Source of the DNA: Lysobacter sp. CA196 | GTDB taxonomy: Bacteria > Pseudomonadota > Gammaproteobacteria > Xanthomonadales > Xanthomonadaceae | Direction: 5' to 3' | DNA length: 64,000 bases | Assembly: GCF_052078695.1 (NCBI RefSeq) | Contig: NZ_JBQJIN010000031.1 | Coordinates: 1,494 to 65,493, forward strand | In this document: positions 16,264 through 63,836 of the stretch, in pieces | Numbering within the stretch: the first letter of the stretch is position 1 | Layout of the letters: each line of letters starts with the position of its first letter | Made by a program: the position numbers and the translations under genes | Notes under the pieces: model-generated | Seen by the model: the letters and a program-made list of their open reading frames with translations, nothing else | Told to the model about the DNA's origin: nothing | Databases searched by the model: none

Positions 16264-16344
16264 GGGTAGGAGCGGCGCTAGCCGCGTCCTCGGGTTGGCG
16301 ACGTAGTTGCGGTGCCACGGTCGCGGCTGGCGCCGCTCCTACCC
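16264..16344. repeat. GTAG-type REP inverted pair (REP family 1) in the aceB-aceA intergenic region
   Basis: gggtaggagcggcgctagccgcg and its inverted complement cgcggctggcgccgctcctaccc. The same family occurs at 30396, 30814 and 63158. Confidence 0.7.
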
Positions 16345-30813: not shown

Positions 30814-30840
30814 GGGTAGGAACGGCGCAAGCCGCGACCG
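30814..30840. repeat. REP family 1 (GTAG-type) element
   Basis: gggtaggaacggcgcaagccgcgaccg. Confidence 0.55.
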
Positions 30841-51142: not shown

Positions 51143-51286
51143 CTGCACGCACAGTCCACGCCCGCCAAGCAAGAATTTGTGCTGCCAGAACATATGCGGC
51201 GAGGCTGTTTCCGCGACCGCGACTGGCGCACAGTGACTCGCCATCACGACTCGGCATCAGGCTCCAGGCTTTCGGACGCGCACCGC

Positions 51287-52498
51287 ATGGACTCTATTTC
51301 CCCCGCCCCGACGACCGACCGCACGGCTCCGGCCGGGCCGCTCGCCGGCATCCGCGTACTCGATCTCAGCGCCTATATCGCCGGCCCTTACGGCTGCACG
51401 CTGCTCGCCGACCAGGGCGCCGACGTGATCAAGATCGAGCCGCCCGATGGCGACAACCTGCGCCAGTACCCTTCGACCCTGGCCAGCGAAAGCCGTGCCT
51501 TCCTTGGGGTCAACCGCAGCAAGCGCGGCATCGTGCTCGACCTCAAACGTCCCGCCGACCACGCCGTGCTGTTGCGTCTGGTGCGCGAGGCCGACGTGCT
51601 GGTGCACAACTTCCGCCCGAGCGTGCCGCCGCGCCTGGGCATCGATTTCGAGCGCCTGCAGCTGATCAATCCGCGCCTGATCTATTGCGCAGTCAGCGGC
51701 TACGGCGAGACCGGTCCGATGAAGGACAAGGCCGGCTACGACCAGGTGCTGCAGACCATGACCGGCATGTGCGCGCTGCAGGGGCGCCGCGGCGGGCCGC
51801 CGGAAATCATCTACGGCTCGGTGGTCGACTACTACGCCGCCGCCCTGCTCGCCGCCGGCGTAGCCTCGGCCCTGTACGAACGCGAGCGCAGCGGCCTGGG
51901 CCAGTTCGTCGGCGTCTCGTTGTTGCGCAGCGCCCTGACCATGCAATCGGCGCGGATGATCTGGGCCGACGGCGAAGGCCTCGACATCGGCCGCGACATG
52001 CGCTCGGGCGGCGTCACCGGCATCCACCCGACCCGCGACGGCCACATCTACATTTCGGCCAATACCTCGCGCTTCTGGAAATCCCTGTGCGAGAAGACCG
52101 GGCTGGTCGAACTCGCCGACGACCCGCGCTACGACAGCGTGCGCAAGCGCGCGCAGGCCGTCGCCGAAATCGTGCCGCGCCTGCACCAGGCGCTGGCGGC
52201 CCGCGATGCGATGGCATGGGAAGCGCTGTTCGGCGACGAGGTGCCCTGCGCCGCGGCGCGGCGCATCGAGGACATGTTCGAGCATCCGCAGGTGCTCGCC
52301 GAGGGCATCGTCGGCCCGATCCAACACCCGCAGGTCGGCCACTACCGCGGCGTCGCCCAATCGATCAAGTTCGGCCGCACCCCGGGCCCGGCGCCGTTCG
52401 CCGCGCCGATGCTCGACCAGGACACTCAGGCGATCAAGGACGAACTCGCCGACCGCGGCACGGTGACTTGGGAACGGCGCGGCGCGGTCGAACGCTGA
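51287..52498 (+). CDS. CoA-transferase family III (CaiB/BaiF) protein
   Basis: IRVLDLSAYIAGPYGCTLLADQGADVIKIEPP N-terminal signature. Confidence 0.85.
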   Translation: MDSISPAPTTDRTAPAGPLAGIRVLDLSAYIAGPYGCTLLADQGADVIKIEPPDGDNLRQYPSTLASESRAFLGVNRSKRGIVLDLKRPADHAVLLRLVREADVLVHNFRPSVPPRLGIDFERLQLINPRLIYCAVSGYGETGPMKDKAGYDQVLQTMTGMCALQGRRGGPPEIIYGSVVDYYAAALLAAGVASALYERERSGLGQFVGVSLLRSALTMQSARMIWADGEGLDIGRDMRSGGVTGIHPTRDGHIYISANTSRFWKSLCEKTGLVELADDPRYDSVRKRAQAVAEIVPRLHQALAARDAMAWEALFGDEVPCAAARRIEDMFEHPQVLAEGIVGPIQHPQVGHYRGVAQSIKFGRTPGPAPFAAPMLDQDTQAIKDELADRGTVTWERRGAVER

Positions 52499-52528: not shown

Positions 52529-53245
52529 CTAGTACGGCGCAGCCTGGGCATCCAGCGCGAACTTCCGCCACAGCTCCTCGAACTGGCCGGCGAAGCAGCG
52601 CACCAGGTTGGCGTCGTCGGTCACCACCAGGTTCTCTTCGTTGCTGGTGGTCGCGCTACGGGTCCAGTTGAAGCTGCCGTTGGCCAGCACCCGGCCGTCG
52701 AACAGCGAGAATTTGTGGTGCATGTGGAAGGGGCTGTCGTCGATCCGCACCGGCACCCCGGCCTCGCGCAGGCGCAGCACGTCGCTGCCTTCGTCGAACT
52801 TCTTGTCGTTGTCGCTGATCAGGCGCACGGCGATGCCGCGCCGGTGGCAGGCGAGGATCTCTTCGCTGAGGCGGTCGTCGGAGATCGTGTACACGCAGAT
52901 GTCGACGCTGCGCTTGGCGCCGCGGCACAGCTCGCGCAGTTTGCGCAGGCAGGCATCGCCGGGCGCGAAGTAGGCGCTCGACACCACCGCGGGCGCGGCG
53001 ACCACGTCGAGGGTCTTGATCACCTGCTCCAGCCAGCGCAGCCCGTCGAGGGCATGCACCGGCTCGCCGAGCATCAGCTCGCGGGTCATGTCGAAGGCGC
53101 GGTTGCGCAGATAGCGCACCCGCTCGCTGCCGAGACCGGCGCCGAGTTCGCGCAACTCGAATTTCTCGTCGTTGTCGAGCGCGCGGTCGGCGATGCTGTC
53201 GCGCAAGGTCTGGTCGAGCCGGCCGAAATCCATGTCCCTGTCCAT
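52529..53245 (-). CDS. single-HKD phospholipase D-family nuclease-like protein (Nuc-like) with ~90-aa N-terminal extension
   Basis: HMHHKFSLFDGRVLANGSFNWT matches HxK(x4)D(x6)GSxN. The start is 3 nt after the stop of the 1790-aa ATPase gene. Confidence 0.75.
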   Translation of the reverse strand: MDRDMDFGRLDQTLRDSIADRALDNDEKFELRELGAGLGSERVRYLRNRAFDMTRELMLGEPVHALDGLRWLEQVIKTLDVVAAPAVVSSAYFAPGDACLRKLRELCRGAKRSVDICVYTISDDRLSEEILACHRRGIAVRLISDNDKKFDEGSDVLRLREAGVPVRIDDSPFHMHHKFSLFDGRVLANGSFNWTRSATTSNEENLVVTDDANLVRCFAGQFEELWRKFALDAQAAPY

Positions 53246-53248
53246 TCC

Positions 53249-56200
53249 TTAGCGTTGGATGCGACCGTTGAGGCGGTCGGCGAATTCATTGAGCGCACGC
53301 TGCAGCTCACGCTGCTGCTCGGTCATTTCCGCGCGCGTCGGCGCGTCGTCGACGTCGCGCTGGCCGAGCCGCTTGAAGATTTCGACCAGAGCCTCGTTGA
53401 GGCGGGTCTGGCGTTCGCTGCTGTCCTGCAGGTGGTTGACCAACGGGTCGAACGCGGACTGCAGCGACGGCACCAGCGAGGTGTGCAGCGACGAGCCGAG
53501 GCCGTTGAGCAGCTTGCCCAGGTCCGGCGCCGGCGCGGTCGGAGTCGCCGGCGGTTGCGCCTGCGCCACCTTTTCCAGGGCAGCCAGGATTTCCTGCCAC
53601 GGCGCCGACGGCGCCGGCTCGGCACGGCCGGCGGCCTGGCTGGCCGACTGGTCGAGCGCGCGCACGCTCTCGACCAGGTCGTTGAGCTGCGCCACGACCC
53701 GAGTGCCGACATCTGCATCGCCCGCGCCCATCGCCTTGTTGCGCTGGAAATCGCGCTTGATCTGAGCCCAACGCGCGGTCTGCGCCTCGTCGAGGGTGCC
53801 GCGCATCTCGCCGAGCTTGAGCAGGTTCTCTTCGGCGCCGCTGGTCAGCAGTTGCGCCTCACCGAGGTAGTGATCGCCGATCAGCTGCTGCAGCTCGGCC
53901 TCGTTCATCACCGGCGAGATTTTCTCGGCGAGCTTGTTCATGTTGCGATAGCTGCCCTGCAGCTTGAACGGCGGCTCGGTGCGGTAGCTCTCGGCCTGGG
54001 CGGCGCTGGCGATGTACTGCTGGTTGACCCGGTAGACCACGTCGCGCACTTTCACCAGCCGTTCCAGGGTCGCGACGATCTCGTTGATCTCCGCGCCGCT
54101 GTAGGCATGACTGAGTTCATCGGCGGAGAATGCCTTGCCCTGGGCCTTGTCGACGAAACGATACAGGTCGGCCATTTCGCGCGTCGCCAGCGGCGCCAGC
54201 ACCGGGTTCGAGGTCAGGCTGTTCTCGATGTAGCTGAGCACGAACGAGGCTTCCATGCCGCCGAGCACGTCGCCGAGGTTGTAGATGTCGGCGCGGTTGG
54301 CGAGCATGTCCGGGATCTTGAAGACCTCGCCGGACTCGGTGTAGGGGTTGCCGGCCATGACCACGCAGAACTTCTTGCCGCGCATGTCGTAAGTGCGGGT
54401 GCGGCCCTTCCACACACCTTCGATGCGACGGGTGCCGTCGCACAGGGAAATGAATTTCTGCAGGAACTCGGGATGGGTGTGCTGGATGTCGTCGACATAC
54501 AGCATCACGTTGTTGCCCATCTCCAGAGCCAGGTTGAGCTTGTCGAGTTCCTGGCGCGAGGTTGCGTCGGGCGCCTGCTCCGGGTCGAGCGAGCGCACTT
54601 CGTGGCCCAAGGCCGGGCCGTTGATCTTCATGAAGATCAGGCCGAGCCGGTGCGCCACGTACTCCATCAAGGTGGTTTTGCCGTAGCCCGGCGGCGAGAT
54701 CATCATCAGCAGGCCCATCAGGTCGCTGCGCTTGCTTTCGCCGACCGTACCCATCTGCTTGGCGAGGTTGTCGCCGATCACCGACAGGTACACGTCGTTG
54801 ATGAGCTTGTTGCGCACGAACGAGGTCAGCGGACGCGGCTTGAACTCGTCCAGGCGCAGGGCATGGCGCTCGCGGCCGACGATCTCCTGGCGCAAGGCCT
54901 GATAGCGCTGGAAGCCGGGGACGAAGGTCTCGCGGTGGTGGCGCAGGCGCGCCGACCAGTCGTCGATCGCCAAAGTGATGCGGCCTTCGACGAGGCGCGG
55001 ATGCTCGCCGAGCAAGCCCTGCACCGGCGCGCTCAGGTCGACCTCGGTGACCTTCTTCGGGAAGCGCTCGTCGAGCAGCAACAAGGTCGCCGCTTCGGCG
55101 GCATAGGCCGTAATCGGGGCGAGTTCGGGCGAACGCGTCAGCGCCTCGACCCAGTTCATCGCCAAGGCCCAACGCGCGGCGACGCGGTCGCCGAGGCCGT
55201 CGAGGGCCTGGATGAAGCCGTCCCACATCCGCGCCGCAGTGAGTTTCTCGCGCAGCGCCTGCAACAGTTGTTGCGCGTACTTGCTGAACACGAACTGCGG
55301 GTGCTCGGCGGACAACTCCAGCACCAGGTATTCGGCTGCGCGCGGGGTCAGCGCCGGATCGATCGCCAGGGTGTGCTGCTGGGCGAAGGCGGTCATCGCC
55401 GCGGCGATCTCGGTCCGCAACGATTCCAGGCCCGCGGCGCTGGCGAACAACTGCTGGATGTCGCGCGCAGTGCGCGCGCGTTCCGGCCATTGGCGGGCGT
55501 CGGCGTGCTCGGCGACCTGCGACCAGAACAACGCCGCCCAGGCGCGCGCGGCCGGCTCGAAGCCGAGGCTGCCGGCGCTGTCGCGCAGCGGCAGCAGCGC
55601 CTGCAGGATCAGGCTGGCGTCGTGGTCGTGGATGCCTTTCTCATAGCCTTCGCGATAGCGCGGCGCGGCGAAGTCGCGCACGCTGCGCGCCAGCAGCTCC
55701 GGCTGCGCCAGTTGCTGGCGCAGCAGATCCAGGCTGAGGCCGTCGCGATTCGCGCTGGCCGCCTCGATCACCAGGCCGGCCAGGTACTCGCCGCGATACA
55801 GCTGCGGCGATTCCGAATCCATCGACACGCCCCAGTAATCGCGCGCGGCATCGAGTTCGGGGTTGCGCAGCGGCTCGAAGAAGTCGGTGCCGGTCAGGTG
55901 CAGGTTGAGCACGTCGCCGCGCGGCAACAGGGTCAGGTCGAGTTCCTGGGTGTTGACGCTGAAGCGGTGGCGCGGCCCCAATTTGATGACGTTGCCGCCG
56001 TCTTCGAACAACTCGCTGCGGTCGCGCAGCGCGCGCACCGCCTGGTCGCGCGCGCCCTTGAGCCGCGCCTCGATGTCGTCGGCCTTGACGCTGTCCTTGA
56101 GCGTGCGCAGGCGCTCGGCCAGTTCGCGCAGCTTGAGGATCAGCGGGTCGCTGGCGAAGAAGGCGTTGAGTTCGTCGCTGCCGGCGAAGCGCGCGGTGCG

Positions 56201-58621
56201 CCGGCCCAGCCCGTCGAGGATGCGGGTGGCCGCATCCATGACCGCCTGCGCCTTGCGCTGGCGATCGTCGAGCAGGGTCTGCTTGTGCGCCTCGAAGGTT
56301 TCGAGCAGTTCCTCGCGCTTGGACAGGATGTCCCCGAGGAAGGCCTCGTGCTCGCCGAACTGACTTTCCAGTTCTTCCAGCTGCACCATCAGCCGCGACA
56401 ACTGCTCGTCGGCACGCTCGGGGTCCTGGGCCAGCGACAGCGCGCTGGCGATGCTCTGCCCAAACAGGGTGAATTGGGCGCCGAACTGGGCCACCGACTC
56501 GCTCGAACCCAGGCCCTTGCGGCGCTGTTCGGCGCGCGCCTTGGCTTGGTTGAGCTTGGCGTAGATCTCCGAGATCGACTCGACGATGCGGGTGCGCTGG
56601 GTGGCGTCGTCGACTTTCAGCGTCGCCATCAGCGCCGAGAGCATGTCGAGGTCGCCCGACATCGCCTGCATCTGTCCGATCGGTTCGAGCAATTGCGCCA
56701 CGCTGACGGCCTGCTGGGCCTGCGCTTCCAGGGCGTGCAAACGCTCGGCCAACGGCGCCAGGGCCTTGTCGCCGGCGAGGAAGGCGCCGGTCGCCGCGGC
56801 GGTGCGCTCGTGCGCGGCGACCAGTTCCTGCTCCATCGCGTCGATGCCGGCGACGTCGATGTAGCGGTAATCGCGGATCGTCAGCAAATGCCCGCGCTGC
56901 GCGGTCAAACCGTTGAGGGCGTCGACGAACTCCTGCACCCGTTCCCAGTTCTCCGGCTGCAGGCCGTCGAGCAAGGCCTTCTGGCGCGTACGCGCCTCGG
57001 TCATCGCGCGCTCGGACTGGCTGCGGATGCCTTCGACTTTCTCGTACTCGTCGAGCACCGACTCGGCGGTTGCGGCGATCTCGCGCAGCAGCGGCGCGGT
57101 GCCGGCGCAGGCGGGGTCGGACAGCCAATGATGGGCGTCGAACAAACGGCGGGTGTTCTGCGCCAGCAGGCCGTAACGCTGCGCCGAAACCTCGGTGGCC
57201 TCGATCTCGCGCGACAGGCTCATCAGCTCCGACACGCCGCGAACCAGCTCGGCATTGCCGATCTTGCCCATGAAGCTGTTGCCGGCCGGCTGCCGTGCCG
57301 CGAACTCGTCGCTGTAGTACGGCGTCTGCCAGACCTGCATCGGATGGACGCGGGTCGGCTCGTCGCTTTCGGTGGCGAAGATCACCATGCGCCCGTCTTC
57401 CAGGCGCGCATAGCCGTGACCGAAGATCGGCGTCTGCAGGCGCCGCTCGATCATGTTGTAGGTGAACATGGCGGTGCGGCCCTGTTCGGGCTCGTAGAAC
57501 AGGTACAGCACGTCCTCGCCGTTGGGCGAGCGGATCGTGCGCTTGAAGCGCATGCCGTCCATCGACTGGTCGAAGCGCTTGTGCTCGCCGTTCTGCAGGT
57601 AATAGCCGCCCGGGAAGATGATGCCGTGGTCTTCGGGCAACTGGATGCAGGCCAGGCCGATCTCGTCCAGGCGCACGACCTTGCGGGTCAGGGTGTTGAA
57701 GACGAGGTAGCGCCACTGCTCTTCGCGATACGGCAGGATCTTCAGCAGGATCAGGCTGCCGACGCGGGCGTAGTCGACTTGGGCGTCGTCGAGCGACTGG
57801 GTCTTGTCGACGACGGGCTCGCGGTAGATGCCCTGCCCGTCCTCGGTGTTGTTCTCGATCTTGACCGTGAGGTCGCCGTTGACCGTCTCGACGAACACGC
57901 TGTCGAGAATGTTCAGATGCGGGTGGCGGCCGTTGACTACCCTCTCTCGGGTGGCGCGGGTCCATTCGAAATCGAACGGCGCCGGCAGGGCGATGTCGCG
58001 CTCGCCGCGGTTGTCGATGTAGGTCACTTCGCCGCCCGGCGCGATCGCCCAGCGGAACACGCGCAGGTCGGTGATGCGCTCGCCGATCTGGAACGCCGCG
58101 AGCAACTTGCCGTCGCGCACGATCAACTGGATCAGGCGGGTGTTCTTGTAATACGCGTACAGCTCGCGGAAATCCTGGGCGAAACTGTCGATGCCGAGGA
58201 AGCTGCCCTTGAGCTCGACCGGGGTGACGTCGTAGCCCTCCGGCCCCTGCACCAGCTTGTACAGCGCGAACACGTCCTCGACCCGGGTCTCCTTCTTGAG
58301 CCCGAGGAAGACGTTGTAGCCGAACACCAGGCAGTCGCCGACCTGGACGATGTCGCGGGCGACGCAGTTGTTCTCGGTGCGCAGGCGGAAGCGCCCGACC
58401 ACCTCCATCTGGCTGCTGCCGAATTCGTCGAGGCGCTGCTGGTTCAGACCCTGGGCGATGTCGCGCAGGCGCTGGCCCTGTTCGGCCAGACGCTTGCTCA
58501 ATACCTCATAAGCGCCGCCCTGGGCGACGGCCTGGTCGACGGCTTGATTCGCCGCAGCGCTGTTGGCGCCGCCGTCGTTCGCGTTCTCGCCCGTGGCCGT
58601 GCCCGGCTTGGTGTCCGCCAT
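53249..58621 (-). CDS. 1790-aa multidomain protein with beta-rich N-terminal domain, long helical/coiled-coil middle and C-terminal AAA+ (AAA_5/MoxR/McrB-like) P-loop ATPase module, function unknown
   Basis: Walker A ISPPGYGKTTL, Walker B VMLYVDDIQH, sensor-1-like FCVVMAGNPY and Arg-finger-like DMLANRADIY. AGGACGG RBS. The antisense long ORF is rejected as a shadow. Confidence 0.7.
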   Translation of the reverse strand: MADTKPGTATGENANDGGANSAAANQAVDQAVAQGGAYEVLSKRLAEQGQRLRDIAQGLNQQRLDEFGSSQMEVVGRFRLRTENNCVARDIVQVGDCLVFGYNVFLGLKKETRVEDVFALYKLVQGPEGYDVTPVELKGSFLGIDSFAQDFRELYAYYKNTRLIQLIVRDGKLLAAFQIGERITDLRVFRWAIAPGGEVTYIDNRGERDIALPAPFDFEWTRATRERVVNGRHPHLNILDSVFVETVNGDLTVKIENNTEDGQGIYREPVVDKTQSLDDAQVDYARVGSLILLKILPYREEQWRYLVFNTLTRKVVRLDEIGLACIQLPEDHGIIFPGGYYLQNGEHKRFDQSMDGMRFKRTIRSPNGEDVLYLFYEPEQGRTAMFTYNMIERRLQTPIFGHGYARLEDGRMVIFATESDEPTRVHPMQVWQTPYYSDEFAARQPAGNSFMGKIGNAELVRGVSELMSLSREIEATEVSAQRYGLLAQNTRRLFDAHHWLSDPACAGTAPLLREIAATAESVLDEYEKVEGIRSQSERAMTEARTRQKALLDGLQPENWERVQEFVDALNGLTAQRGHLLTIRDYRYIDVAGIDAMEQELVAAHERTAAATGAFLAGDKALAPLAERLHALEAQAQQAVSVAQLLEPIGQMQAMSGDLDMLSALMATLKVDDATQRTRIVESISEIYAKLNQAKARAEQRRKGLGSSESVAQFGAQFTLFGQSIASALSLAQDPERADEQLSRLMVQLEELESQFGEHEAFLGDILSKREELLETFEAHKQTLLDDRQRKAQAVMDAATRILDGLGRRTARFAGSDELNAFFASDPLILKLRELAERLRTLKDSVKADDIEARLKGARDQAVRALRDRSELFEDGGNVIKLGPRHRFSVNTQELDLTLLPRGDVLNLHLTGTDFFEPLRNPELDAARDYWGVSMDSESPQLYRGEYLAGLVIEAASANRDGLSLDLLRQQLAQPELLARSVRDFAAPRYREGYEKGIHDHDASLILQALLPLRDSAGSLGFEPAARAWAALFWSQVAEHADARQWPERARTARDIQQLFASAAGLESLRTEIAAAMTAFAQQHTLAIDPALTPRAAEYLVLELSAEHPQFVFSKYAQQLLQALREKLTAARMWDGFIQALDGLGDRVAARWALAMNWVEALTRSPELAPITAYAAEAATLLLLDERFPKKVTEVDLSAPVQGLLGEHPRLVEGRITLAIDDWSARLRHHRETFVPGFQRYQALRQEIVGRERHALRLDEFKPRPLTSFVRNKLINDVYLSVIGDNLAKQMGTVGESKRSDLMGLLMMISPPGYGKTTLMEYVAHRLGLIFMKINGPALGHEVRSLDPEQAPDATSRQELDKLNLALEMGNNVMLYVDDIQHTHPEFLQKFISLCDGTRRIEGVWKGRTRTYDMRGKKFCVVMAGNPYTESGEVFKIPDMLANRADIYNLGDVLGGMEASFVLSYIENSLTSNPVLAPLATREMADLYRFVDKAQGKAFSADELSHAYSGAEINEIVATLERLVKVRDVVYRVNQQYIASAAQAESYRTEPPFKLQGSYRNMNKLAEKISPVMNEAELQQLIGDHYLGEAQLLTSGAEENLLKLGEMRGTLDEAQTARWAQIKRDFQRNKAMGAGDADVGTRVVAQLNDLVESVRALDQSASQAAGRAEPAPSAPWQEILAALEKVAQAQPPATPTAPAPDLGKLLNGLGSSLHTSLVPSLQSAFDPLVNHLQDSSERQTRLNEALVEIFKRLGQRDVDDAPTRAEMTEQQRELQRALNEFADRLNGRIQR

Positions 58622-58742
58622 GTGTCCGTCCTAACGATCCTGCCGGCCGCGCGCTAAGCCGCGCCATCGGCGTGCTGCCATGCGCCGCCGATGGCGGCGG
58701 CGCGTTCCTTGGTCCGTGCTGCTGGGTTCCGGCCGCGAGCGG

Positions 58743-60806
58743 TCAGGAGTCCAGCACGGTCTCGCTGGAGGCCTTGCCTTCGCCCCTGCCGTCGGACTTG
58801 CCGTCCGACTTGGCCAGCAAACGCTGCAGCACGTCCTGCACGATCGGGCTCTTGCCGGCCACACCCTCGATCGCCTTGCCGACCGACAGCGCCTTGGCGA
58901 AGGAATTGAAGAACTCGCCTTCGCCGCCGACGATGTCGATGTTGGCCTTGCTGAGCGCCGCGGCCAGCACATCGGCCTGTTCCTTGGCGACTTCCTTGTT
59001 GGCCTCGATCGAAGCGATCGCCTGCTCGAAGTTCTTCTCCAGCTGCATGCGGAACTCCTCGTGCGAGCGGGCCTGGTCGCTGAGCGAATCCAGCGCTCCG
59101 AACTTCTGCGACAGACCTTCGGCCTCGGACTTGAACTTCTGCAGCAGCACTTCGGCTTCCGACAGGCCCAGGTCCCGGGTCGCCTTGGCCTTGGCCGCAC
59201 CCAGCTGCTCGTCGCCGCGCGCCTGCGCGAACAGGTTCTCTTCCAGCACCTTGGCGTCGGACAGGCCCTGCTTCTGCTTGGCGTCGGCCTGCGCTTCGAT
59301 CACGCGCGCCTGCGCCAGGCCCTTCTCCTGCTCGCCGCGGGCTTCCGCGGTCAGGGTCTCGGCGATCACGCGCGCCTTGGCCATGCCTTCCTTCTCGCTC
59401 GCCGCGGCGGTGACTTCGCGCACCCGCGCATCGGCCAGGCCGGGCGCGGCGCGCTCGGCCTCGATGCCTTCGGCCAGCTTCTTCTTGGCTTCGGACTGCT
59501 TGCCGGCCGCTTCCAGCTCGGCCTGCGCCAGCACCGTCATCTCGCCGGCGCGGTGCTTGGACGCGGTCTCGTTAGCCTCGGCCTGCTTGACCTGGCGCAC
59601 CAGCTCTTCCTCGGCCGCGGCCTGCGCGTTCAGCACAGTGACCTGCTTGGCGCGATCGGCCTCGGACACCGCGCGCACTTCCTTGATGCGCTCTTCTTCC
59701 TGGGCCACGGTCTTCTCGACCGCGATCCGCTCGCGGATGACGTTGGCGATTTCCTTGCGCTGTTCTTCCAGCGCCTTTTCCTTCTCGATCCGGTTCAGCT
59801 CGACCTCGCGTTCGCGCGAGACGATTTCCAGGTCCTTGGCGCGGGTCACCTTCTCGACTTCGATCACCACCGCGCGCTGGCGGTTCTGCTGGGCCACTTC
59901 GACTTCGCGCTGGCGGTTCTGCTCGCGGATGTCGAGCTGCTCCTGCACCGAAATGCGCGCCTGCTCGGACTTCAGCCGCTCTTCTTCCTGCACCTTGGCG
60001 GTCTCGGCCTGCTCGCGCGCCTGGATGGTCTGGATCTCGCGTTTCTGCCGCGCCTCGGCGTCGGCCTGCTGGCGTTCCAGCGCGAGCATGGCTTCGCGGG
60101 TCTCGACGTTCTTCTTGGTGATCGCCAGCTGCTCGTTCCGTTCGAGCTCGTTGGTGATCACATTTTGCGCCGCGGTCAGCTCGGTGATCTTGCGGATGCC
60201 CTCGGCGTCGAGGATGTTGGTCGGGTCGAGCGAGGACTTCGGGGTCTGTTCCAGATAGTCGATCGCGACGTCTTCGAGCACGTAGCCGTTGAGGTCGTTG
60301 CCGATCACCTCGACGATGCGGTCGCGGAACTCCTGGCGGTTCTCGAACAGCTTGACGAAGTCGATCTGCTTGCCGACCGTCTTCAGCGCTTCGGAGAACT
60401 TGGCGTTGAACAGCTCATTGACCGCGGTGCGGTCGGAGGCGCGGTCCACGCCGATCGACTTGGCGACCTTCAACACGTCCTGCTGGGTCTCGTTGACGCG
60501 CAGGTAGAACGCCACGGTGATGTCGGCGCGCATATTGTCTTTGCAGATCAGCCCGTCTTTCGCCCGGCGATCGACTTCCAGGGTGATCAGGGAGATCTTC
60601 ATGAACTCCTTCTTGTAGATCACCGGATACACCAGCGCGCCGGTGAAATGCACCTTGGGCATGGCCGACATGTCGTTGACGATCAGCGCCGTACCCTGCG
60701 GGACCTTGATGTAGAAGGCCTTGAACATCATCAGCAGGACGAACACGACCAGAATGCCCAGACCCACCAGGGTCAGGACCATGAAAATACCCGACGGAAA
60801 ATTCAT
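58743..60806 (-). CDS. flotillin-like SPFH/band-7 protein (YqiK-like) with long Ala/Glu/Gln coiled-coil
   Basis: N-terminal TM, an SPFH domain (VPQGTALIVND...) and ~400 aa of EA-rich coiled coil. GGGAGATG RBS. Confidence 0.8.
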   Translation of the reverse strand: MNFPSGIFMVLTLVGLGILVVFVLLMMFKAFYIKVPQGTALIVNDMSAMPKVHFTGALVYPVIYKKEFMKISLITLEVDRRAKDGLICKDNMRADITVAFYLRVNETQQDVLKVAKSIGVDRASDRTAVNELFNAKFSEALKTVGKQIDFVKLFENRQEFRDRIVEVIGNDLNGYVLEDVAIDYLEQTPKSSLDPTNILDAEGIRKITELTAAQNVITNELERNEQLAITKKNVETREAMLALERQQADAEARQKREIQTIQAREQAETAKVQEEERLKSEQARISVQEQLDIREQNRQREVEVAQQNRQRAVVIEVEKVTRAKDLEIVSREREVELNRIEKEKALEEQRKEIANVIRERIAVEKTVAQEEERIKEVRAVSEADRAKQVTVLNAQAAAEEELVRQVKQAEANETASKHRAGEMTVLAQAELEAAGKQSEAKKKLAEGIEAERAAPGLADARVREVTAAASEKEGMAKARVIAETLTAEARGEQEKGLAQARVIEAQADAKQKQGLSDAKVLEENLFAQARGDEQLGAAKAKATRDLGLSEAEVLLQKFKSEAEGLSQKFGALDSLSDQARSHEEFRMQLEKNFEQAIASIEANKEVAKEQADVLAAALSKANIDIVGGEGEFFNSFAKALSVGKAIEGVAGKSPIVQDVLQRLLAKSDGKSDGRGEGKASSETVLDS

Positions 60807-60860
60807 CTTTGCATCTCCCTATGACTCGACTTCGATACGGATGGCGGCGACCGACGAGGG

Positions 60861-61571
60861 TCAGGCGCCGCGGAATTCGTCTTCGCTGACCACGCGATAA
60901 GCGTTCTGGTCGGCGAGGTACTCGATCAACACCACGCGGTCCCCGCGTTTGAAACGTTCGCCGCCTTCGTCGCGGATCTGCAGGATCAGGCCGGCGCCGC
61001 CGTCCTCGATGGCCGCGGTGCCGGTGACCCGGGTCACGGCCGGACTGCGGATCACCGCGGTCTGGCCCAGCAACGGCCGCGGCGGCTCGGGTTGCATCTT
61101 GCGCAGCAGGCGCCGCACCGGGCGCAACGCGAACGCGGCGACCGGAATCGCCAGGACGAAGGCGACCACCAGCGCGACCAGGTCGGCGATGAAGCGCAGG
61201 CTGCCGCCCGGCAGCAGGCGCAGCAGATACAGATCGGCCAGATAAGTCAGCGCCCAAGCCGTGGCGACCAGCACGCTGAGCACGACCGTGACCGGTATGC
61301 CGCCCAGCCCCAGACGCATCAGCGGATCGAACACGCTTTGATGGTGGTGGGCGCCGTCGGCCAGCGATTGATCGCCGAGGGTATGGCCGTGCGCCGGGCC
61401 GTGGCCATGAGCGTCGCCGCCGAAGTGGCCGTGGCCGAACAGACCGTCGGCGACGTCCATGCCGACCAGGCCGAGCGCCGACAACAGCCAATAGCCGACC
61501 ACCACGCCCAACAGGACGGAGTAGAACGCCGTTGGAAACGAAAATACGATCTGCAAGAACTCGATCATCAC
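60861..61571 (-). CDS. YqiJ/NfeD-like OB-fold inner-membrane protein with His-rich loop
   Basis: Two TM blocks. C-terminal ...GERFKRGDRVVLIEYLADQNAYRVV OB-fold typical of the NfeD/YqiJ partners of flotillins. Confidence 0.7.
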   Translation of the reverse strand: MMIEFLQIVFSFPTAFYSVLLGVVVGYWLLSALGLVGMDVADGLFGHGHFGGDAHGHGPAHGHTLGDQSLADGAHHHQSVFDPLMRLGLGGIPVTVVLSVLVATAWALTYLADLYLLRLLPGGSLRFIADLVALVVAFVLAIPVAAFALRPVRRLLRKMQPEPPRPLLGQTAVIRSPAVTRVTGTAAIEDGGAGLILQIRDEGGERFKRGDRVVLIEYLADQNAYRVVSEDEFRGA

Positions 61572-61620
61572 CCCTCCCTTCCCGCGTGCCGCGTTCCCTG
61601 CGGCGCCTCCATGAAGCCGG

Positions 61621-62328
61621 TCAGCCCGGCAGTTTCTGTCGCAACCTCAGCAATACCGCTTCGGCGCCGGCGTCGTCGGCGATGATGCCGGCCTCGCGTA
61701 GCTTGCGTTCCAGCGCGTCGCCGCCGTCCTGGCGCGCCAATTCGGTCGCTGCCTCCATGCGCGCACCGCGCTCGGCCTGCTTCTGCTTGATCCGCGCCAA
61801 CGAGTCGACCGCCGTCTGCAAGCGGTTCTGCGGCCCGGCGTAGCGATGCGCGACCGCAGCCTGCGCGCGCTGCATGCTCTCGGTGGCCTTGACCGTGTCC
61901 AGTTGTTGCTTGAGCCGGCGGATGTTGCCTTCGGCCATGGCGATGGCCTTGCGCAGCTCGGTCGCGCTGAGCGCGAGCTGCTGCACGTGGCGCTCGTCGT
62001 CGCCGCGGCCGGATTCGAGCAGCACGATCTTGTCGGCGACTTCGCGCGCCAGCGACTCGTCGCCGGATTCCAGCGCCTTGATCGCATAGGTTTCGTATTC
62101 GGCGACCTTGTCGCTGGAATCGCTCAGGCGCCGCTGCGCCAGCGAATGGCGCGCGATCAATTCGGCCAGCGATTCGCGCGAACGACGCAGTTCCAGGTCG
62201 CAATCGCGGATTTCCTGGTCGAGGATGCGCAGCGCCTGACTGTCGACCCAGGCCTCGCCGAGCTCGCGCGCACCGCCGCGTATCGAGGTCAGCAGCTTGC
62301 TCCAGATGTTCGGGTCGGACATCGACAT
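61621..62328 (-). CDS. PspA/IM30 (Vipp1) family protein (YjfJ-like paralog)
   Basis: Start MSMSDPNIWSKLL with GGAGGTGG RBS. The ATG overlaps the upstream stop as ATGA. Coiled-coil PspA pattern. Confidence 0.8.
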   Translation of the reverse strand: MSMSDPNIWSKLLTSIRGGARELGEAWVDSQALRILDQEIRDCDLELRRSRESLAELIARHSLAQRRLSDSSDKVAEYETYAIKALESGDESLAREVADKIVLLESGRGDDERHVQQLALSATELRKAIAMAEGNIRRLKQQLDTVKATESMQRAQAAVAHRYAGPQNRLQTAVDSLARIKQKQAERGARMEAATELARQDGGDALERKLREAGIIADDAGAEAVLLRLRQKLPG

Positions 62329-62960
62329 CAGGCCACCTCCAGCAACTGCGTTTCGTAGGCCTCGGTCGCCTTGATCACGTTGTCGGCGAGGGTCTCGATC
62401 TCGTAGAGCACGTTCGACAGCGACGAAGCCGCGCTGAGCGCGCCGAACATCATGTACACCGCCTCGCCGTCGGCGAGGGTTTCGATACCGATCGTCGACA
62501 GCGGGAACACCTTGTGGGTGCGCAGCACTTCTTCGTTGAACGCCGAGGCGTCGCGCACGTGCGCGACCGGCCATAGCAGCGCTTCGACCACGATTTGCTC
62601 GCCGACCACGGCCACGAACAACGGCAGGTCGCCGTATTCGGCCATGACCAGATGCAGGCTGGGTTCGGCGCCGTCGATCAGCTCGATCTGCGAATCGCCG
62701 TAGATGAATTCCTCGTCCTGCGACAGCGCGTCGTACAAACCCGCGGCCGTCCAGACCTTGCCATCGCTCATCGCGCCCTCCGCGCGTCCTCGCCCCGACA
62801 CCGCACCGCGCGGCTGCCGCATCCGCCGTTCCACCGCCATGAGCTCTTCGGAAAATTCCGGCAGCACCCACAGCTCCTTCTTGACCAGCCCCTTCTCGCG
62901 TAACCGCTCGCGGTGTTTGCGCTGGTAATAGGCAGAGGATCGACGTTCCATGTCATTCAC
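62328..62960 (-). CDS. YjfI-like (DUF2170) protein with possible 63-aa basic N-terminal extension (alternative start 62771)
   Basis: The C-terminal 147 aa from MSDGKVWTAAGLYDAL... resemble the YjfI partner of PspA paralogs. The N-terminal MERRSSAYYQRKHRERLREKGLV... is in frame with no intervening stop. Confidence 0.5.
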   Translation of the reverse strand: MNDMERRSSAYYQRKHRERLREKGLVKKELWVLPEFSEELMAVERRMRQPRGAVSGRGRAEGAMSDGKVWTAAGLYDALSQDEEFIYGDSQIELIDGAEPSLHLVMAEYGDLPLFVAVVGEQIVVEALLWPVAHVRDASAFNEEVLRTHKVFPLSTIGIETLADGEAVYMMFGALSAASSLSNVLYEIETLADNVIKATEAYETQLLEVA

Positions 62961-62966
62961 GATAAG

Positions 62967-63002
62967 TCATCACATGTGACACTGACAAGCATGACATGTG
63001 AT
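62967..63002. promoter_or_regulatory. pair of CACATGTG palindromic operator-like sites upstream of the six-gene operon
   Basis: tcatCACATGTGAcac (perfect palindrome TCACATGTGA) and atgaCATGTGAtat, centres ~23 bp apart, in a locally AT-rich patch. Confidence 0.4.
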
Positions 63003-63157
63003 ATGCCGACGAACGGCGGGGAGGCGGCCAAGCAAGCGGTGCACACCTTTTATTTCAATAACTTATGCTGCGACCCGGGATGACGAACGCTCCGGCGAAG
63101 CCTGCCCCACGACCCTGATGACGGGGTACCGCTAGCGGCGTCGTAATCGGGCAATTC

Positions 63158-63228
63158 GCGGTCGCGGCTTGCGCCGCTCCTACCCTGGAGCCGCTCTAGG
63201 GGTAGGAGCGGCGCAAGCCGCGACCACG
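63158..63228. repeat. GTAG-type REP inverted pair (REP family 1)
   Basis: gcggtcgcggcttgcgccgctcctaccc ... gggtaggagcggcgcaagccgcgaccacg. Confidence 0.7.
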
Positions 63229-63392
63229 CCAAGCCGACTACGACGAAACCGAGGCCAGTCCCGCGGACGAACGACACCAACCGCGAGTCCCGAGTCCCGA
63301 GTCCCGAGCCCCCAATCAAAGGATGCCGACAGACACGATCGCCCCGCACGCACGACCCGGCCGTTGCCGACCGGATCGCGACGCGGACCGTC

Positions 63393-63638
63393 TCAGGCGG
63401 AAATACCGTGCTGCTTGCGCGCTTCGTCGATGCGGCGCTTCACCTCGGCATCGAGCGTGCCGAGTTCGGCCTGCTTGAAGATATTGTCGAGCACGCGCTT
63501 TTCATCGTCGTAGATGGCCTGATCGCGCAGCGCCAGATCGAGCAGCTTCTGCAGTTCGGCGACGTCGAGCGTGCCGTCGTTGGTGAATACCGGGATCGAC
63601 GCGAGGGCGATCTCGAGGTGGCTCTTGGGCTGGGCCAT
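63393..63638 (-). CDS. small hypothetical protein (81 aa)
   Basis: MAQPKSHLEIALASIPVFTNDGTLDVAELQKLLDLALRDQAIYDDEKRVLDNIFKQAELG... has coding-like composition, unlike neighbouring shadow ORFs. Confidence 0.5.
   Translation of the reverse strand: MAQPKSHLEIALASIPVFTNDGTLDVAELQKLLDLALRDQAIYDDEKRVLDNIFKQAELGTLDAEVKRRIDEARKQHGISA

Positions 63639-63744: not shown

Positions 63745-63836
<92 letters not shown>

Follow-up and report, generated by a model that had tools for sequence, protein, structure and literature searches.

Six Lysobacter genes probably form the orthologue of Pseudomonas aeruginosa bacABCDEF and a PspA-plus-flotillin system for envelope stress and membrane remodelling

Introduction

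The bac cluster of Pseudomonas aeruginosa received its name in 2008 (PMC2587700). In 2024 it was extended, by RT-PCR and proteomics, to six co-transcribed genes, bacABCDEF (PA14_16140-16200; Mace et al. 2008, Wallart et al. 2024; PMC10948618). BacB to BacF increase 6- to 13-fold in a bacA mutant, and a strong BacA-BacB interaction is cited there as unpublished (PMC10948618). The mutant is PA14 bacA::MAR2xT7, and part of the increase could come from transposon read-through. The crystallised domain of BacA has been likened to T3SS chaperones and to the chaperone-regulator ExsC. BacD has been published as PaFlo3, paired with a "short NfeD" that is the PA14 BacC orthologue (PMC13086221). Deletion of paFlo3 (bacD) had only about a 20% effect on biofilm, so the strong phenotypes of bacA and bacB may reflect side effects of regulation. 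The operon is inducible by osmotic shock and by the pore-forming PSM toxins of staphylococci, and every phage-infected P. aeruginosa sample showed upregulation of PA3728-PA3732 (PMC12041424). Ravi et al. (bioRxiv 2020, mSystems 2024; PMC11237479) described an identical architecture by comparative genomics. They place a PLD (HKD) hydrolase "in some Proteobacteria" and describe shortened flotillin/YqiJ/AAA+ operons as more widespread.

Escherichia coli yjfIJ encodes a CesT-like/PspA pair (YjfI-YjfJ), as do bacA and bacB, and yqiJK encodes a short-NfeD/flotillin pair (YqiJ-YqiK), as do bacC and bacD. However, the two E. coli loci are unlinked, and no AAA+ or PLD gene adjoins yqiJK. We group Bacillus subtilis yuaFGI (floT) and pspA-ydjGHI with them as close systems; YdjI is an SPFH protein that ties PspA to the membrane (PMC8581546). 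In E. coli pspF-pspABCDE, PspA is an effector that shares in its own regulation by partner switching, and the system is induced by envelope stress and by phage proteins. PspA/IM30 proteins reportedly form polymers of the ESCRT-III superfamily, in 2021 work ascribed to Liu et al. and Junglas et al.

Results

The window analysed here is a 64,000-nt stretch of Lysobacter sp. CA196 (NZ_JBQJIN010000031.1), and all coordinates refer to it. Its minus strand carries six intact, co-directional ORFs.

62328-62951, minus strand: bacA, 207 aa, ATG start at 62951
61621-62328, minus strand: bacB, 235 aa, PspA/IM30 of the YjfJ type
60861-61571, minus strand: bacC, 236 aa, three-TM protein of the YqiJ/short-NfeD type
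58743-60806, minus strand: bacD, 687 aa, flotillin, SPFH/band-7
53249-58621, minus strand: bacE, 1790 aa, giant AAA+ protein
52529-53245, minus strand: bacF, 238 aa, or 234 aa from Met5 at 53233

The bacA start is shared with the NCBIfam BacA model and with 48 of 48 orthologues. The true bacF start is probably Met5, because its orthologues begin with MDF. The bacA stop and the bacB start overlap by 1 nt in TGATG, with GGAGG upstream of the bacB start. The gaps that follow are 49, 54 and 121 nt, and then 3 nt (15 nt with bacF from Met5). A prior sequence-only reading of the block had recognised the six co-directional genes and their tight spacing, with the 121- and 3-nt gaps exactly so. It had put the two shorter gaps at 50 and 55 nt and the overlap at ATGA, and its right limit, 63002, is the edge of the promoter/operator rather than the end of a coding sequence. 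All of its domain labels held, by Pfam for four proteins and by profile comparison for the flotillin and YqiJ.

PA3732-PA3727 are one-to-one orthologues of all six genes, in identical order and with the same domain content. Identities to PA3732, PA3731, PA3730, PA3729, PA3728 and PA3727 are 57, 59, 45, 81, 71 and 64%. We therefore consider it likely that the block is the Lysobacter orthologue of bacABCDEF, a system built on PspA and flotillin that serves envelope stress and membrane remodelling. The arrangement, which the sequence-only reading had not recognised from characterised systems, is already known, because RT-PCR showed a single transcript in 2024 and Ravi et al. described the architecture; given these two sources, the family's known operon does largely include these genes. 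The two copies differ in genus and in flanking genes, which are metabolic in the window.

We surveyed synteny in 81 related loci (labelled L0xx). The patterns were ABCDEF in 35, ABCDE in 13, CDE in 27 and CDEF in 2; the other 4 were partial patterns on truncated contigs. The C-D-E core (YqiJ-like protein, flotillin and giant AAA+ protein) was present in every locus wherever the contig allows. The neighbourhood is thus not limited to this genome, and the block is no chance arrangement, because the full order recurs in 35 of the 81 loci and the core throughout. The C-D-E trio is an ancient, chromosomal, multi-phylum core, to which the A-B pair (CesT-like/PspA) and F (PLD) are optional additions; the PLD gene is absent from 40 loci (the 13 ABCDE and 27 CDE). 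The survey reproduces both points of Ravi et al., the PLD gene in only some loci and the wide spread of short operons. BacE has 6445 relatives. It is 71% identical to the P. aeruginosa protein over 98% of its length, and 43-46% identical to proteins of Bacteroidota and Actinomycetota.

A further small gene accompanies the operon in the window.

63393-63638, minus strand: orf81, 81 residues, four-helix TerB-like protein, transcribed separately, upstream of bacA

The 10-kb flanks of 25 of the 81 loci contain an orf81 homologue. Most Lysobacter-type loci have it immediately upstream of bacA and many Pseudomonas loci between bacD and bacE; in a single locus it follows bacE. P. aeruginosa itself, unlike Lysobacter, has none within 8 kb. 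The AlphaFold model of orf81 has a pLDDT of 87, and Pfam TerB matches 9 of 50 family members (best 1.2e-4). Orf81 is a probable accessory partner of the cluster. The linkage is lineage-specific, because distant homologues in other phyla show no linkage to flotillin or AAA+ genes. In four loci a TelA gene lies between bacE and bacF. We count the TelA insertion and the TerB-like orf81 as consistent with a membrane theme.

BacA matches NCBIfam NF050185, "biofilm formation regulator BacA", at 4.4e-103 (343 bits; cutoff 300) and Pfam DUF2170/YjfI at 2.5e-50. It has two parts.

62808-62951, minus strand: N-terminal module, 48 residues, basic, MazE-like
about 62349-62753, minus strand: DUF2170/YjfI CesT-Tir-like chaperone domain, after a variable linker

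The N-terminal module is kept in 48 of 48 orthologues. PF11455 (MazE-like) matches 9 of 16 BacA N termini, all below cutoff and covering only half of the model, and the module has no match among solved structures. PDB 8q8o covers only BacA residues 63-201, so the crystallised construct is without the module. E. coli YjfI, at about 133 aa, is not known to carry it either. The CesT/Tir gene of Hymenobacter, at only 408 nt, leaves no room for the module, and a divergent LexA-family regulator lies upstream instead.

Upstream of bacA is a predicted σ70-type promoter with two TYACATGTRA boxes.

62959-63001, minus strand: bacA promoter and operator
62992-63001, minus strand: distal box TCACATGTCA, just upstream of the -35
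62983-62988, minus strand: -35, TTGTCA
62970-62979, minus strand: proximal box TCACATGTGA, filling the -35/-10 spacer
62959-62964, minus strand: -10, TATCGT, with the ATG at 62951, 7 nt past it

This layout is common to about 45 loci, P. aeruginosa included, with the boxes fixed at -50 and -27. The box occurs in 41 of 48 bacA upstream regions, compared with one box in 1.17 Mb elsewhere and none in the 33 loci that have no bacA. One clade (L026, L027, L032, L051, L054 and L056) has an altered module (YVREFRERMR) together with altered boxes (TTTCATGTAA). A Shine-Dalgarno-like sequence precedes bacA in only 2 of 48 loci. Because the -10 ends 6-7 nt before the ATG in 35 of 48, we infer that the bacA mRNA is leaderless.

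We suggest that BacA is a built-in autorepressor whose MazE-like module binds both palindromes, and that its CesT-like domain binds BacB. Upon inner-membrane damage, BacB would polymerise there and draw BacA from the DNA, derepressing the operon. For regulation only, a different account seems unlikely: the operon would belong to a σ54-dependent Psp-type regulon, with BacA a post-transcriptional chaperone and no DNA-binding repressor. It draws on the likeness of the crystallised domain to T3SS chaperones and ExsC, and on a putative RpoN -24/-12 site reported upstream of PA3732 in two P. aeruginosa papers. However, TGGCAC-N5-TTGCW with up to two mismatches is absent upstream of bacA in the window, and the best GG-N10-G candidates score 6/11 in P. 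aeruginosa and 8/11 in the window; the window candidate falls within coding sequence, and none is conserved. Those papers worked with a short, 16-kDa BacA, and the PDB chain begins at residue 63; therefore, the published "upstream" region may sit inside what is now annotated as coding sequence. What is conserved across about 45 loci is instead the σ70-like promoter with embedded palindromes. The autorepressor scheme also sets the operon apart from E. coli psp. The window operon has no PspB, PspC or PspF; the E. coli regulator is a σ54 enhancer-binding AAA+ protein, whereas BacE has no σ54-interaction or HTH domain, and the repressor of the inferred σ70 promoter would be a CesT-like protein that carries a DNA-binding extension.

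BacB matches PspA_IM30 (PF04012) at 2.8e-46. BacC and BacD have no Pfam match, even at E<=10, and were assigned by profile comparison. The BacC family aligns with E. coli YqiJ (hhalign probability 80%, E 1.4e-5), and BacC matches a Hymenobacter protein annotated DUF1449 (E 7e-5); it has three TM segments and a C-terminal soluble domain. BacD has one N-terminal TM segment, an SPFH/band-7 domain, a long coiled coil and a flotillin C terminus. It has no PDB sequence match, and its family profile aligns with E. coli YqiK over 413 columns (probability 99.9%, E 2.7e-31). BacC and BacD may form an SPFH/flotillin assembly in the inner membrane.

BacE contains three Pfam regions, and its C-terminal region is helical and conserved.

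57128-58468, minus strand: DUF3686, aa 52-498, 3.6e-206, reported as a beta-propeller
56516-56767, minus strand: DUF7902, aa 619-702, within a long helical stretch
54326-54709, minus strand: AAA_5-type AAA+ core, aa 1305-1432

AAA_5 is the sole AAA model that aligns over the whole core. The Walker A (GYGKTT, 1312-1317) and Walker B (DD, 1377-1378) motifs are invariant; the Walker B is DD and not DE. The segment GNPYTESGEVFKIPDMLANRAD is reminiscent of the MoxR motif ATQNPxExEGTYxLPEAxLDRF. Comparison with solved structures gave no relative beyond the P-loop, and the AlphaFold model of the AAA+ region is too poor for classification (pLDDT 55). BacE may be a soluble ATPase of the MoxR/AAA_5 type that combines a beta-propeller with a long coiled coil.

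BacF matches PLDc_2 at 5.3e-28.

52568-52930, minus strand: single-HKD PLD domain, preceded by a helical N-terminal domain of about 95 residues

The motif is H176-x-K178-x4-D183-x6-G190-S191-x-N193. H and K are invariant in 38-39 of 39 orthologues, and position 183 is D in 37 and E in 1. The best PDB match is mitochondrial cardiolipin hydrolase (9lkx, 3.8e-31 over 135 residues; 4ggj, 6.1e-28), well ahead of Nuc (1byr, 2.8e-11) and NucT (1.8e-5). The label "Nuc-like nuclease" is therefore too narrow, while the single-HKD PLD assignment stands. BacF shares the single-HKD fold and the intact motif with MitoPLD/PLD6/Zucchini (cardiolipin hydrolase; piRNA nuclease). However, the soluble helical N-terminal domain of BacF contrasts with the TM anchor of MitoPLD and the zinc finger of Zucchini. 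Similarity does not settle the BacF substrate, because the activity of MitoPLD and Zucchini is itself disputed between lipase and nuclease.

Discussion

To our knowledge, BacC, BacD, BacE and BacF have no known biochemical activity in any organism. We suggest that BacE works on flotillin and PspA (ESCRT-III-like) polymers much as Vps4 does on ESCRT-III, using ATP for their assembly, remodelling or recycling. BacF, as a MitoPLD-like single-HKD enzyme, would act at the flotillin/PspA site, where its substrate would most likely be cardiolipin or another phospholipid, changing curvature or fusogenicity; RNA or DNA is the alternative. MitoPLD works at the membrane surface in membrane fusion. An operon-encoded AAA+ protein that could recycle PspA polymers would be a functional analogue of Vps4. 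However, BacE is not a Vps4 homologue; its AAA_5/MoxR-like core belongs to a protein that is four times larger, lacks a MIT domain and has flotillin and YqiJ, rather than PspA, as obligate partners.

The operon is probably not a phage-defence system. The sequence-only reading had seen the logic of an anti-phage module here. In an envelope-associated anti-phage or abortive-infection system, the giant ATPase would sense infection and the PLD nuclease would destroy phage or host nucleic acid. We regard this as very unlikely. A large ATPase with a PLD protein is a common layout in defence, and the BacF domain matches, weakly, the PLD domains of DrmC, MkoC and DpdK (E 2e-7 to 1e-3). TelA- and TerB-type partners belong to Ter systems, which have a historical link to phage and colicin resistance, and phage infection raises PA3728-PA3732. 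However, PADLOC gave no match for BacA to BacD, only a coiled-coil-level match for BacE (3e-4) and a weak, domain-level PLD match for BacF. Mokosh, DISARM (DrmC) and Dpd (DpdK) likewise all have a PLD-family domain, but their signature partners, such as an RNA helicase or a methylase, are missing from the bac operon; BacE fits no defence ATPase model, and conservation and context are unlike those of defence islands. The ATPase occurs in none of the 50,697 phage records searched; among 72,556 plasmid records it appears in 13, the majority of which are very large replicons (0.39-11.9 Mb). The 90%-identity cluster of the P. aeruginosa protein holds 3222 sequences, and the gene cluster is reported in both PAO1 and PA14. 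Identity of 71% between Lysobacter and Pseudomonas over 1790 aa, and of 43-46% across phyla, is atypical of defence genes; metabolic genes, and no defence island, make up the flanks, and the PLD gene is optional.

An envelope-stress or membrane-remodelling system is a better fit, because osmotic shock, pore-forming toxins and phage infection all induce the operon, a general envelope-stress pattern like that of E. coli psp. The general idea was correct in linking membrane-stress modules with a giant AAA+ protein and a PLD protein, and of the proposed "envelope-associated defense or membrane-repair" role, membrane repair is the better-supported half.

A DNA-repair module is extremely unlikely. 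In its favour are the name of BacE in NCBI and UniRef ("DNA repair ATPase"), the Pfam description of DUF3686 ("ATPase involved in DNA repair"), the relationship of BacF to Nuc and NucT, and the position of recJ two genes downstream in P. aeruginosa. However, the names are uncurated legacy labels, the only repair-related similarity of BacE is one 45-residue P-loop match to RuvB (E about 0.05), its invariable partners are two membrane proteins, the published induction conditions found are all envelope stress, MitoPLD is nearer to BacF than Nuc by about 20 orders of magnitude in E-value, and the recJ neighbourhood is not conserved in the window.

The available portions of the P. aeruginosa bac literature and of Ravi et al. 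carry no mention that we found of the boxes and leaderless σ70-type promoter, the BacA N-terminal module or the MitoPLD affinity; sections 19 and 20 of Ravi et al. also contain neither the TerB-like gene nor the TelA insertion. The TYACATGTRA boxes and promoter geometry are present upstream of bacA in P. aeruginosa, as in Lysobacter.

The bac operon in the window

The ORF listing and translation gave six intact genes:

52529-62951, minus strand: bacA (YjfI-like), bacB (PspA), bacC (YqiJ-like), bacD (flotillin), bacE (giant AAA+) and bacF (PLD)

The sequence-only reading had called six co-directional minus-strand genes here. This was borne out, as were its domain labels, which agreed with Pfam, NCBIfam and profile comparison, the YqiJ-like label of bacC being tentative. 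The gene junctions, from bacA to bacF, measure -1, 49, 54, 121, and 3 nt. The bacA/bacB junction had been described as an ATGA overlap, but it is TGATG, with one shared base rather than four. The operon contains no terminator-like site on its minus strand. The start codon of bacA is the ATG at 62951. The true start of bacF is probably Met5, because every orthologue opens with 'MDF'.

Each of the six proteins has a single counterpart at the P. aeruginosa locus, with identities of 57, 59, 45, 81, 71, and 64% for BacA to BacF, and the gene order A-B-C-D-E-F on one strand is common to both. The window operon is a P. aeruginosa-type bacABCDEF operon, complete and in the same order. The P. aeruginosa locus contains DUF2170, PspA_IM30, 213-aa, 688-aa, 1746-aa DUF3686/AAA, and PLDc_2 genes. 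These are followed by YaeQ, recJ, and an M4-peptidase gene, in agreement with the PAO1 numbering; we take the peptidase gene beyond recJ to be lasB. BacA also scores 343 bits against "biofilm formation regulator BacA," an NCBIfam equivalog model with a cutoff of 300.

The six-gene arrangement is already known. Mace et al. named PA3729-PA3732 the bac cluster in 2008 (PMC2587700), and Wallart et al. showed by RT-PCR in 2024 that bacA-bacF (PA14_16140-16200) form one six-gene operon in PA14 (PMC10948618). Ravi et al. describe the neighbourhood independently by comparative genomics and present the PLD (HKD) hydrolase as an addition "in some Proteobacteria" (PMC11237479). In a 2026 paper, BacD is PaFlo3 and its partner a "short NfeD" (PMC13086221). 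The claim that the arrangement was new to characterised systems therefore fails, as it was published for P. aeruginosa (PMC2587700, PMC10948618) and by Ravi et al. (PMC11237479). In P. aeruginosa, the system has effects on virulence, on biofilm formation, and on the production of rhamnolipid. Since the arrangement is in print and many genomes already carry its annotation, the six-gene finding by itself has small weight. The remaining interest lies in the mechanism and in the regulatory details, namely the operator, the putative leaderless σ70 promoter, and the BacA module.

A conserved core with accessory genes

A scan of species-representative genomes yielded at least 591 confirmed relatives of the ATPase. 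We surveyed 81 loci, consisting of 80 of these relatives and the P. aeruginosa locus. The YqiJ-like, flotillin, and giant AAA+ genes (C-D-E) were found in every surveyed locus where the contig permits, and the other genes are accessory.

Gene patterns among the 81 surveyed loci (letters denote bacA to bacF)
ABCDEF: 35
ABCDE: 13
CDE alone (largely Stenotrophomonas): 27
CDEF: 2
Partial patterns, contigs ending early: 4

D and E are the best conserved, with 81% and 71% identity between Lysobacter and Pseudomonas. Identities of 44% for D and 43 to 46% for E are still kept in Streptomyces and Hymenobacter, and the flotillin/AAA+ core is kept across Proteobacteria, Actinomycetota, Bacteroidota, and Deinococcota. 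The window ATPase is 87% identical to an L. capsici protein, which marks the operon as a Lysobacter copy. The bac ATPase occurred in none of 50,697 phage records and in 13 of 72,556 plasmid records, mostly on replicons of 0.39 to 11.9 Mb.

The operon is flanked in the window by CoA-transferase, GH127 glycosidase, and PfkB kinase genes. A family III CoA-transferase gene adjoins it in both Lysobacter and P. aeruginosa. In the window this gene (51179-52498, plus strand) is convergent with bacF, and at the P. aeruginosa locus (L001:2188-3417, minus strand) it is divergent from bacA. The adjacency in the two genomes may be a coincidence.

The Bacteroidota version of the cluster is seen on a Hymenobacter plasmid (L087, 125179-143966), in the order CesT/Tir, PspA, DUF1449, flotillin, and ATPase. 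A gene for a LexA-family regulator lies divergently upstream, and genes for a LytTR regulator and a histidine kinase lie directly downstream. Because the Hymenobacter cluster is flanked by these genes, it suggests that regulators have been exchanged between phyla.

Protein families of BacA to BacE

BacA matches DUF2170/YjfI in Pfam (2.5e-50), and BacB matches PspA_IM30 (2.8e-46). The BacB match to PF04012 scores 158 bits (cutoff, 33.9) and covers model positions 1 to 216 of 220, as in a full-length PspA/IM30 protein. In single-sequence searches, BacC and BacD gave no Pfam hit even at an E value of ≤10 and no PDB sequence match. However, an alignment of 77 BacD orthologues matched E. coli YqiK over 413 columns, including the transmembrane segment (probability, 99.9%; E value, 2.7e-31). 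BacD is thus predicted to be an SPFH/flotillin protein of the YqiK type, with an N-terminal transmembrane segment and band-7 and flotillin regions. The BacC family aligned to E. coli YqiJ over 143 columns by hhalign (probability, 80%; E value, 1.4e-5), and BacC is 25% identical to the Hymenobacter DUF1449-annotated protein (E value, 7e-5). BacC may be a YqiJ/short NfeD (DUF1449) protein, a type with three transmembrane segments, a soluble C-terminal domain, and a gene directly upstream of a flotillin gene; bacC has that position.

BacE, with 1790 aa, matches DUF3686 (3.6e-206), DUF7902, and an AAA_5-type core in Pfam. Our criterion for an AAA+ protein was a Walker A motif (GxxGxGK[ST]) and a Walker B motif (hhhhD[DE]), together with an AAA+ model that aligns over the full core. 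GYGKTT at 1312-1317 and VDD at 1376-1378 are invariant across 12 sequences, and the AAA_5 match (24.2 bits; cutoff, 22) covers positions 2 to 127 of 139. BacE is therefore predicted to be an AAA+ ATPase, probably of the AAA_5/MoxR-like clade. The clade assignment comes from Pfam AAA_5 and the motifs because AlphaFold, run on 551 aa of the AAA+ region with 15 aligned sequences at 74 to 90% identity, gave a model too poor for a fold search (pLDDT, 55; pTM, 0.31). When the full BacE alignment was searched as a profile against the PDB, it returned P-loop matches to RuvB and p97 and no other solved relative. We rejected the label "DNA repair ATPase," which is an uncurated name.

BacF and its relation to MitoPLD

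BacF matches PLDc_2 at 5.3e-28 (97.9 bits; Pfam cutoff, 27). Its HxK(x)4D(x)6GSxN motif is intact (H176-x-K178-x4-D183-x6-G190-S191-x-N193). The motif H and K are invariant in 38 to 39 of 39 orthologues, and D183 is kept in 37 of the 39, with E in its place in 1. These features place BacF, by sequence, in the single-HKD Nuc/MitoPLD branch of the PLD superfamily. Its closest solved relatives are of the MitoPLD type.

Solved relatives of BacF (E value)
Mitochondrial cardiolipin hydrolase (MitoPLD/PLD6), 9lkx: 3.8e-31
MitoPLD, 4ggj: 6.1e-28
Zucchini-type entries: about 1e-19
Nuc, 1byr: 2.8e-11
NucT: 1.8e-5

Against the NucT equivalog models, BacF scored 52 bits, below the cutoff of 211. The sequence-only reading had called it a PLD-family, Nuc-like nuclease. 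The family stands, but the stronger match to MitoPLD than to Nuc and the NucT scores below cutoff make "Nuc-like nuclease" too narrow. Within an operon of flotillin and PspA, a lipid substrate seems at least as likely as nucleic acid. The substrate of this MitoPLD-like enzyme could tie bacterial flotillin domains to cardiolipin metabolism.

The bacA promoter and the BacA N-terminal module

Two near-identical palindromes lie upstream of bacA, 22 bp apart, on either side of a TTGTCA hexamer:

62970-62979: palindrome TCACATGTGA
62992-63001: palindrome TCACATGTCA

The sequence TATCGT follows the palindromes and ends 7 nt from the bacA ATG. About 45 loci show the same layout; they belong to Lysobacter, Pseudomonas (P. 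aeruginosa among them), Lampropedia, Nevskia, and a Cellvibrionaceae MAG. Among 48 bacA upstream regions, 41 have at least one strict TYACATGTRA box and 28 have two, at the fixed positions -50 and -27. The strict box occurs once in the remaining 1.17 Mb of the bacA loci, not at all in 658 kb of loci without bacA, and only once in the whole window.

A TTGnnn-(16-18)-TAnnnT promoter ending 6 to 7 nt before the ATG was found in 35 of the 48 bacA loci, and a Shine-Dalgarno-like sequence ahead of bacA was found in 2. A promoter this close to the ATG and the rarity of a Shine-Dalgarno sequence therefore point to a leaderless bacA mRNA. The P. aeruginosa literature proposes a σ54 (RpoN) promoter upstream of bacA. 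However, a search for TGGCAC-N5-TTGCW with up to two mismatches found no site near bacA in the window, and the σ54 consensus search at the P. aeruginosa locus was also negative. The best σ54 candidates near bacA are weak and lack conservation; it is the σ70-like promoter with palindromic boxes that is conserved. A published-type σ54 promoter is thus not apparent in these sequences, and a leaderless σ70 promoter with a defined operator would conflict with the P. aeruginosa σ54 model.

A 48-residue N-terminal module is kept in all 48 BacA orthologues, with the consensus SSAxYQRxxRQRLREQGLVKKEVWILPE...ERxxRQP. Nine of 16 BacA N termini match the MazE-like antitoxin family PF11455 (best E value, 7.6e-4; 17 to 18 bits, under the cutoff of 22), over model positions 5 to 27 of 65 only. 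The module, a candidate DNA-binding one of the RHH/MazE-like kind, had no PDB match. In one Lysobacter clade (L026, L027, L032, and L051), a divergent BacA N terminus occurs together with divergent operator boxes. The Hymenobacter CesT/Tir gene is too short for the module, and there a LexA-family regulator gene is divergently upstream. The bacA mutant of P. aeruginosa has 6- to 13-fold more BacB to BacF (PMC10948618). Because of the conservation of boxes and module and this published derepression, we infer that BacA may be an autorepressor that binds the TYACATGTRA boxes.

The crystallised BacA (PDB 8q8o) starts at residue 63 and is without the N-terminal module, and BacA is given as 16 kDa in the 2008 paper (PMC2587700). 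Both correspond to a short form from an internal Met, with the module and the putative true promoter farther upstream.

Phage defense, envelope stress, and a possible mechanism

The sequence-only reading had proposed a novel envelope-associated defense or membrane-repair system. That the bac operon is a phage-defense system is highly improbable. PA3728-PA3732 were upregulated in every phage-infected P. aeruginosa sample (PMC12041424). However, the PADLOC models gave no match for BacA to BacD, only a 3e-4 match to an LmuB coiled-coil region for BacE, and only weak, domain-level PLD hits (≤29 bits) for BacF. The conservation, chromosomal siting, and metabolic flanks of bac are unlike those of a defense island, and 40 of 81 loci do without the PLD gene. 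Analogies to Mokosh, DISARM, and McrBC were rejected on the PADLOC results. Osmotic shock (PMC2587700) and staphylococcal pore-forming toxins likewise elicit a response of the operon or of PA3731. Osmotic, toxin, and phage responses would all be expected of a phage-shock-type envelope response.

We suggest that the flotillin/YqiJ/BacE trio may be a bacterial membrane-remodelling machine. BacE, as a giant MoxR-type AAA+ protein, could act like Vps4 and recycle the polymers formed by SPFH proteins and by the ESCRT-III-like PspA. In the six-gene form, the MitoPLD homologue might turn cardiolipin into phosphatidic acid locally, leading to membrane sealing or fusion. The system would be switched on when PspA titrates the CesT-like repressor BacA off its leaderless σ70 promoter, and σ54 would not be used. 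The sequences themselves establish the orthology, the core with its accessory genes, the conserved operator and promoter, and the kinship of BacF to MitoPLD; BacA binding to DNA, its release by BacB, a remodelling role of BacE like that of Vps4 or MoxR, and a lipid substrate for BacF are inferences. As a joint reading, a remodelling trio with a Vps4-like BacE, a cardiolipin-cleaving BacF, and a PspA-titrated BacA is tentative and unlikely to hold in all its parts. Among the bac components, a structure or demonstrated activity exists for the BacA chaperone domain only.

Neighbouring genes and repeats

Several further elements lie near the operon:

63393-63638, minus strand: orf81, an 81-aa four-helix TerB-like protein, upstream of bacA
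63157-63228: 29-nt inverted repeat, 97% complementary, with GGTAGGAGCGGCGCAAGCCGC within its arms
63284-63312: tandem array of the heptamer CGAGTCC, 4.1 copies
63760-63836: tandem array of the hexamer GCCGTT, 12.8 copies, 91% matches

Homologues of orf81 lie within 10 kb in 25 of the 81 bac loci. In most Lysobacter-type loci the homologue sits upstream of bacA, in many Pseudomonas loci it separates bacD from bacE, and in one locus it is found downstream of bacE. The AlphaFold model has four helices (pLDDT, 87), and a Foldseek search of the PDB with it gave nothing under an E value of 1.5. The TerB and EF-hand matches are weak, and the TerB-like label derives from such weak sequence hits. The N-terminal domain of BacF aligned to orf81 by hhalign with a probability of 44% and an E value of 2.4e-4. 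On the contigs inspected from Armatimonadetes, Fusibacter, and Chloroflexi, distant orf81 homologues had no flotillin/AAA+ linkage. A small gene 3' of the Streptomyces bacE homologue, considered as an orf81 counterpart, proved unrelated. Excerpts from the P. aeruginosa and comparative literature do not mention orf81 as a bac cluster member.

In four loci of one Lysobacter clade (L026, L027, L032, and L051; for example, L027:15313-17177), a gene for the toxic-anion-resistance protein TelA (5.7e-72) and a 256-aa gene without a Pfam hit are inserted between bacE and bacF. Both orf81 and TelA fit the membrane-stress theme.

The inverted repeat at 63157-63228 has related copies at 16265-16343 and 30815-30835, and the window contains five copies of its arm against none expected. 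It resembles the REP/SMAG-type palindromic elements found between genes in Xanthomonadales. The GCCGTT and CGAGTCC arrays are both sited between orf81 and its neighbours and are possible variable-number repeats.
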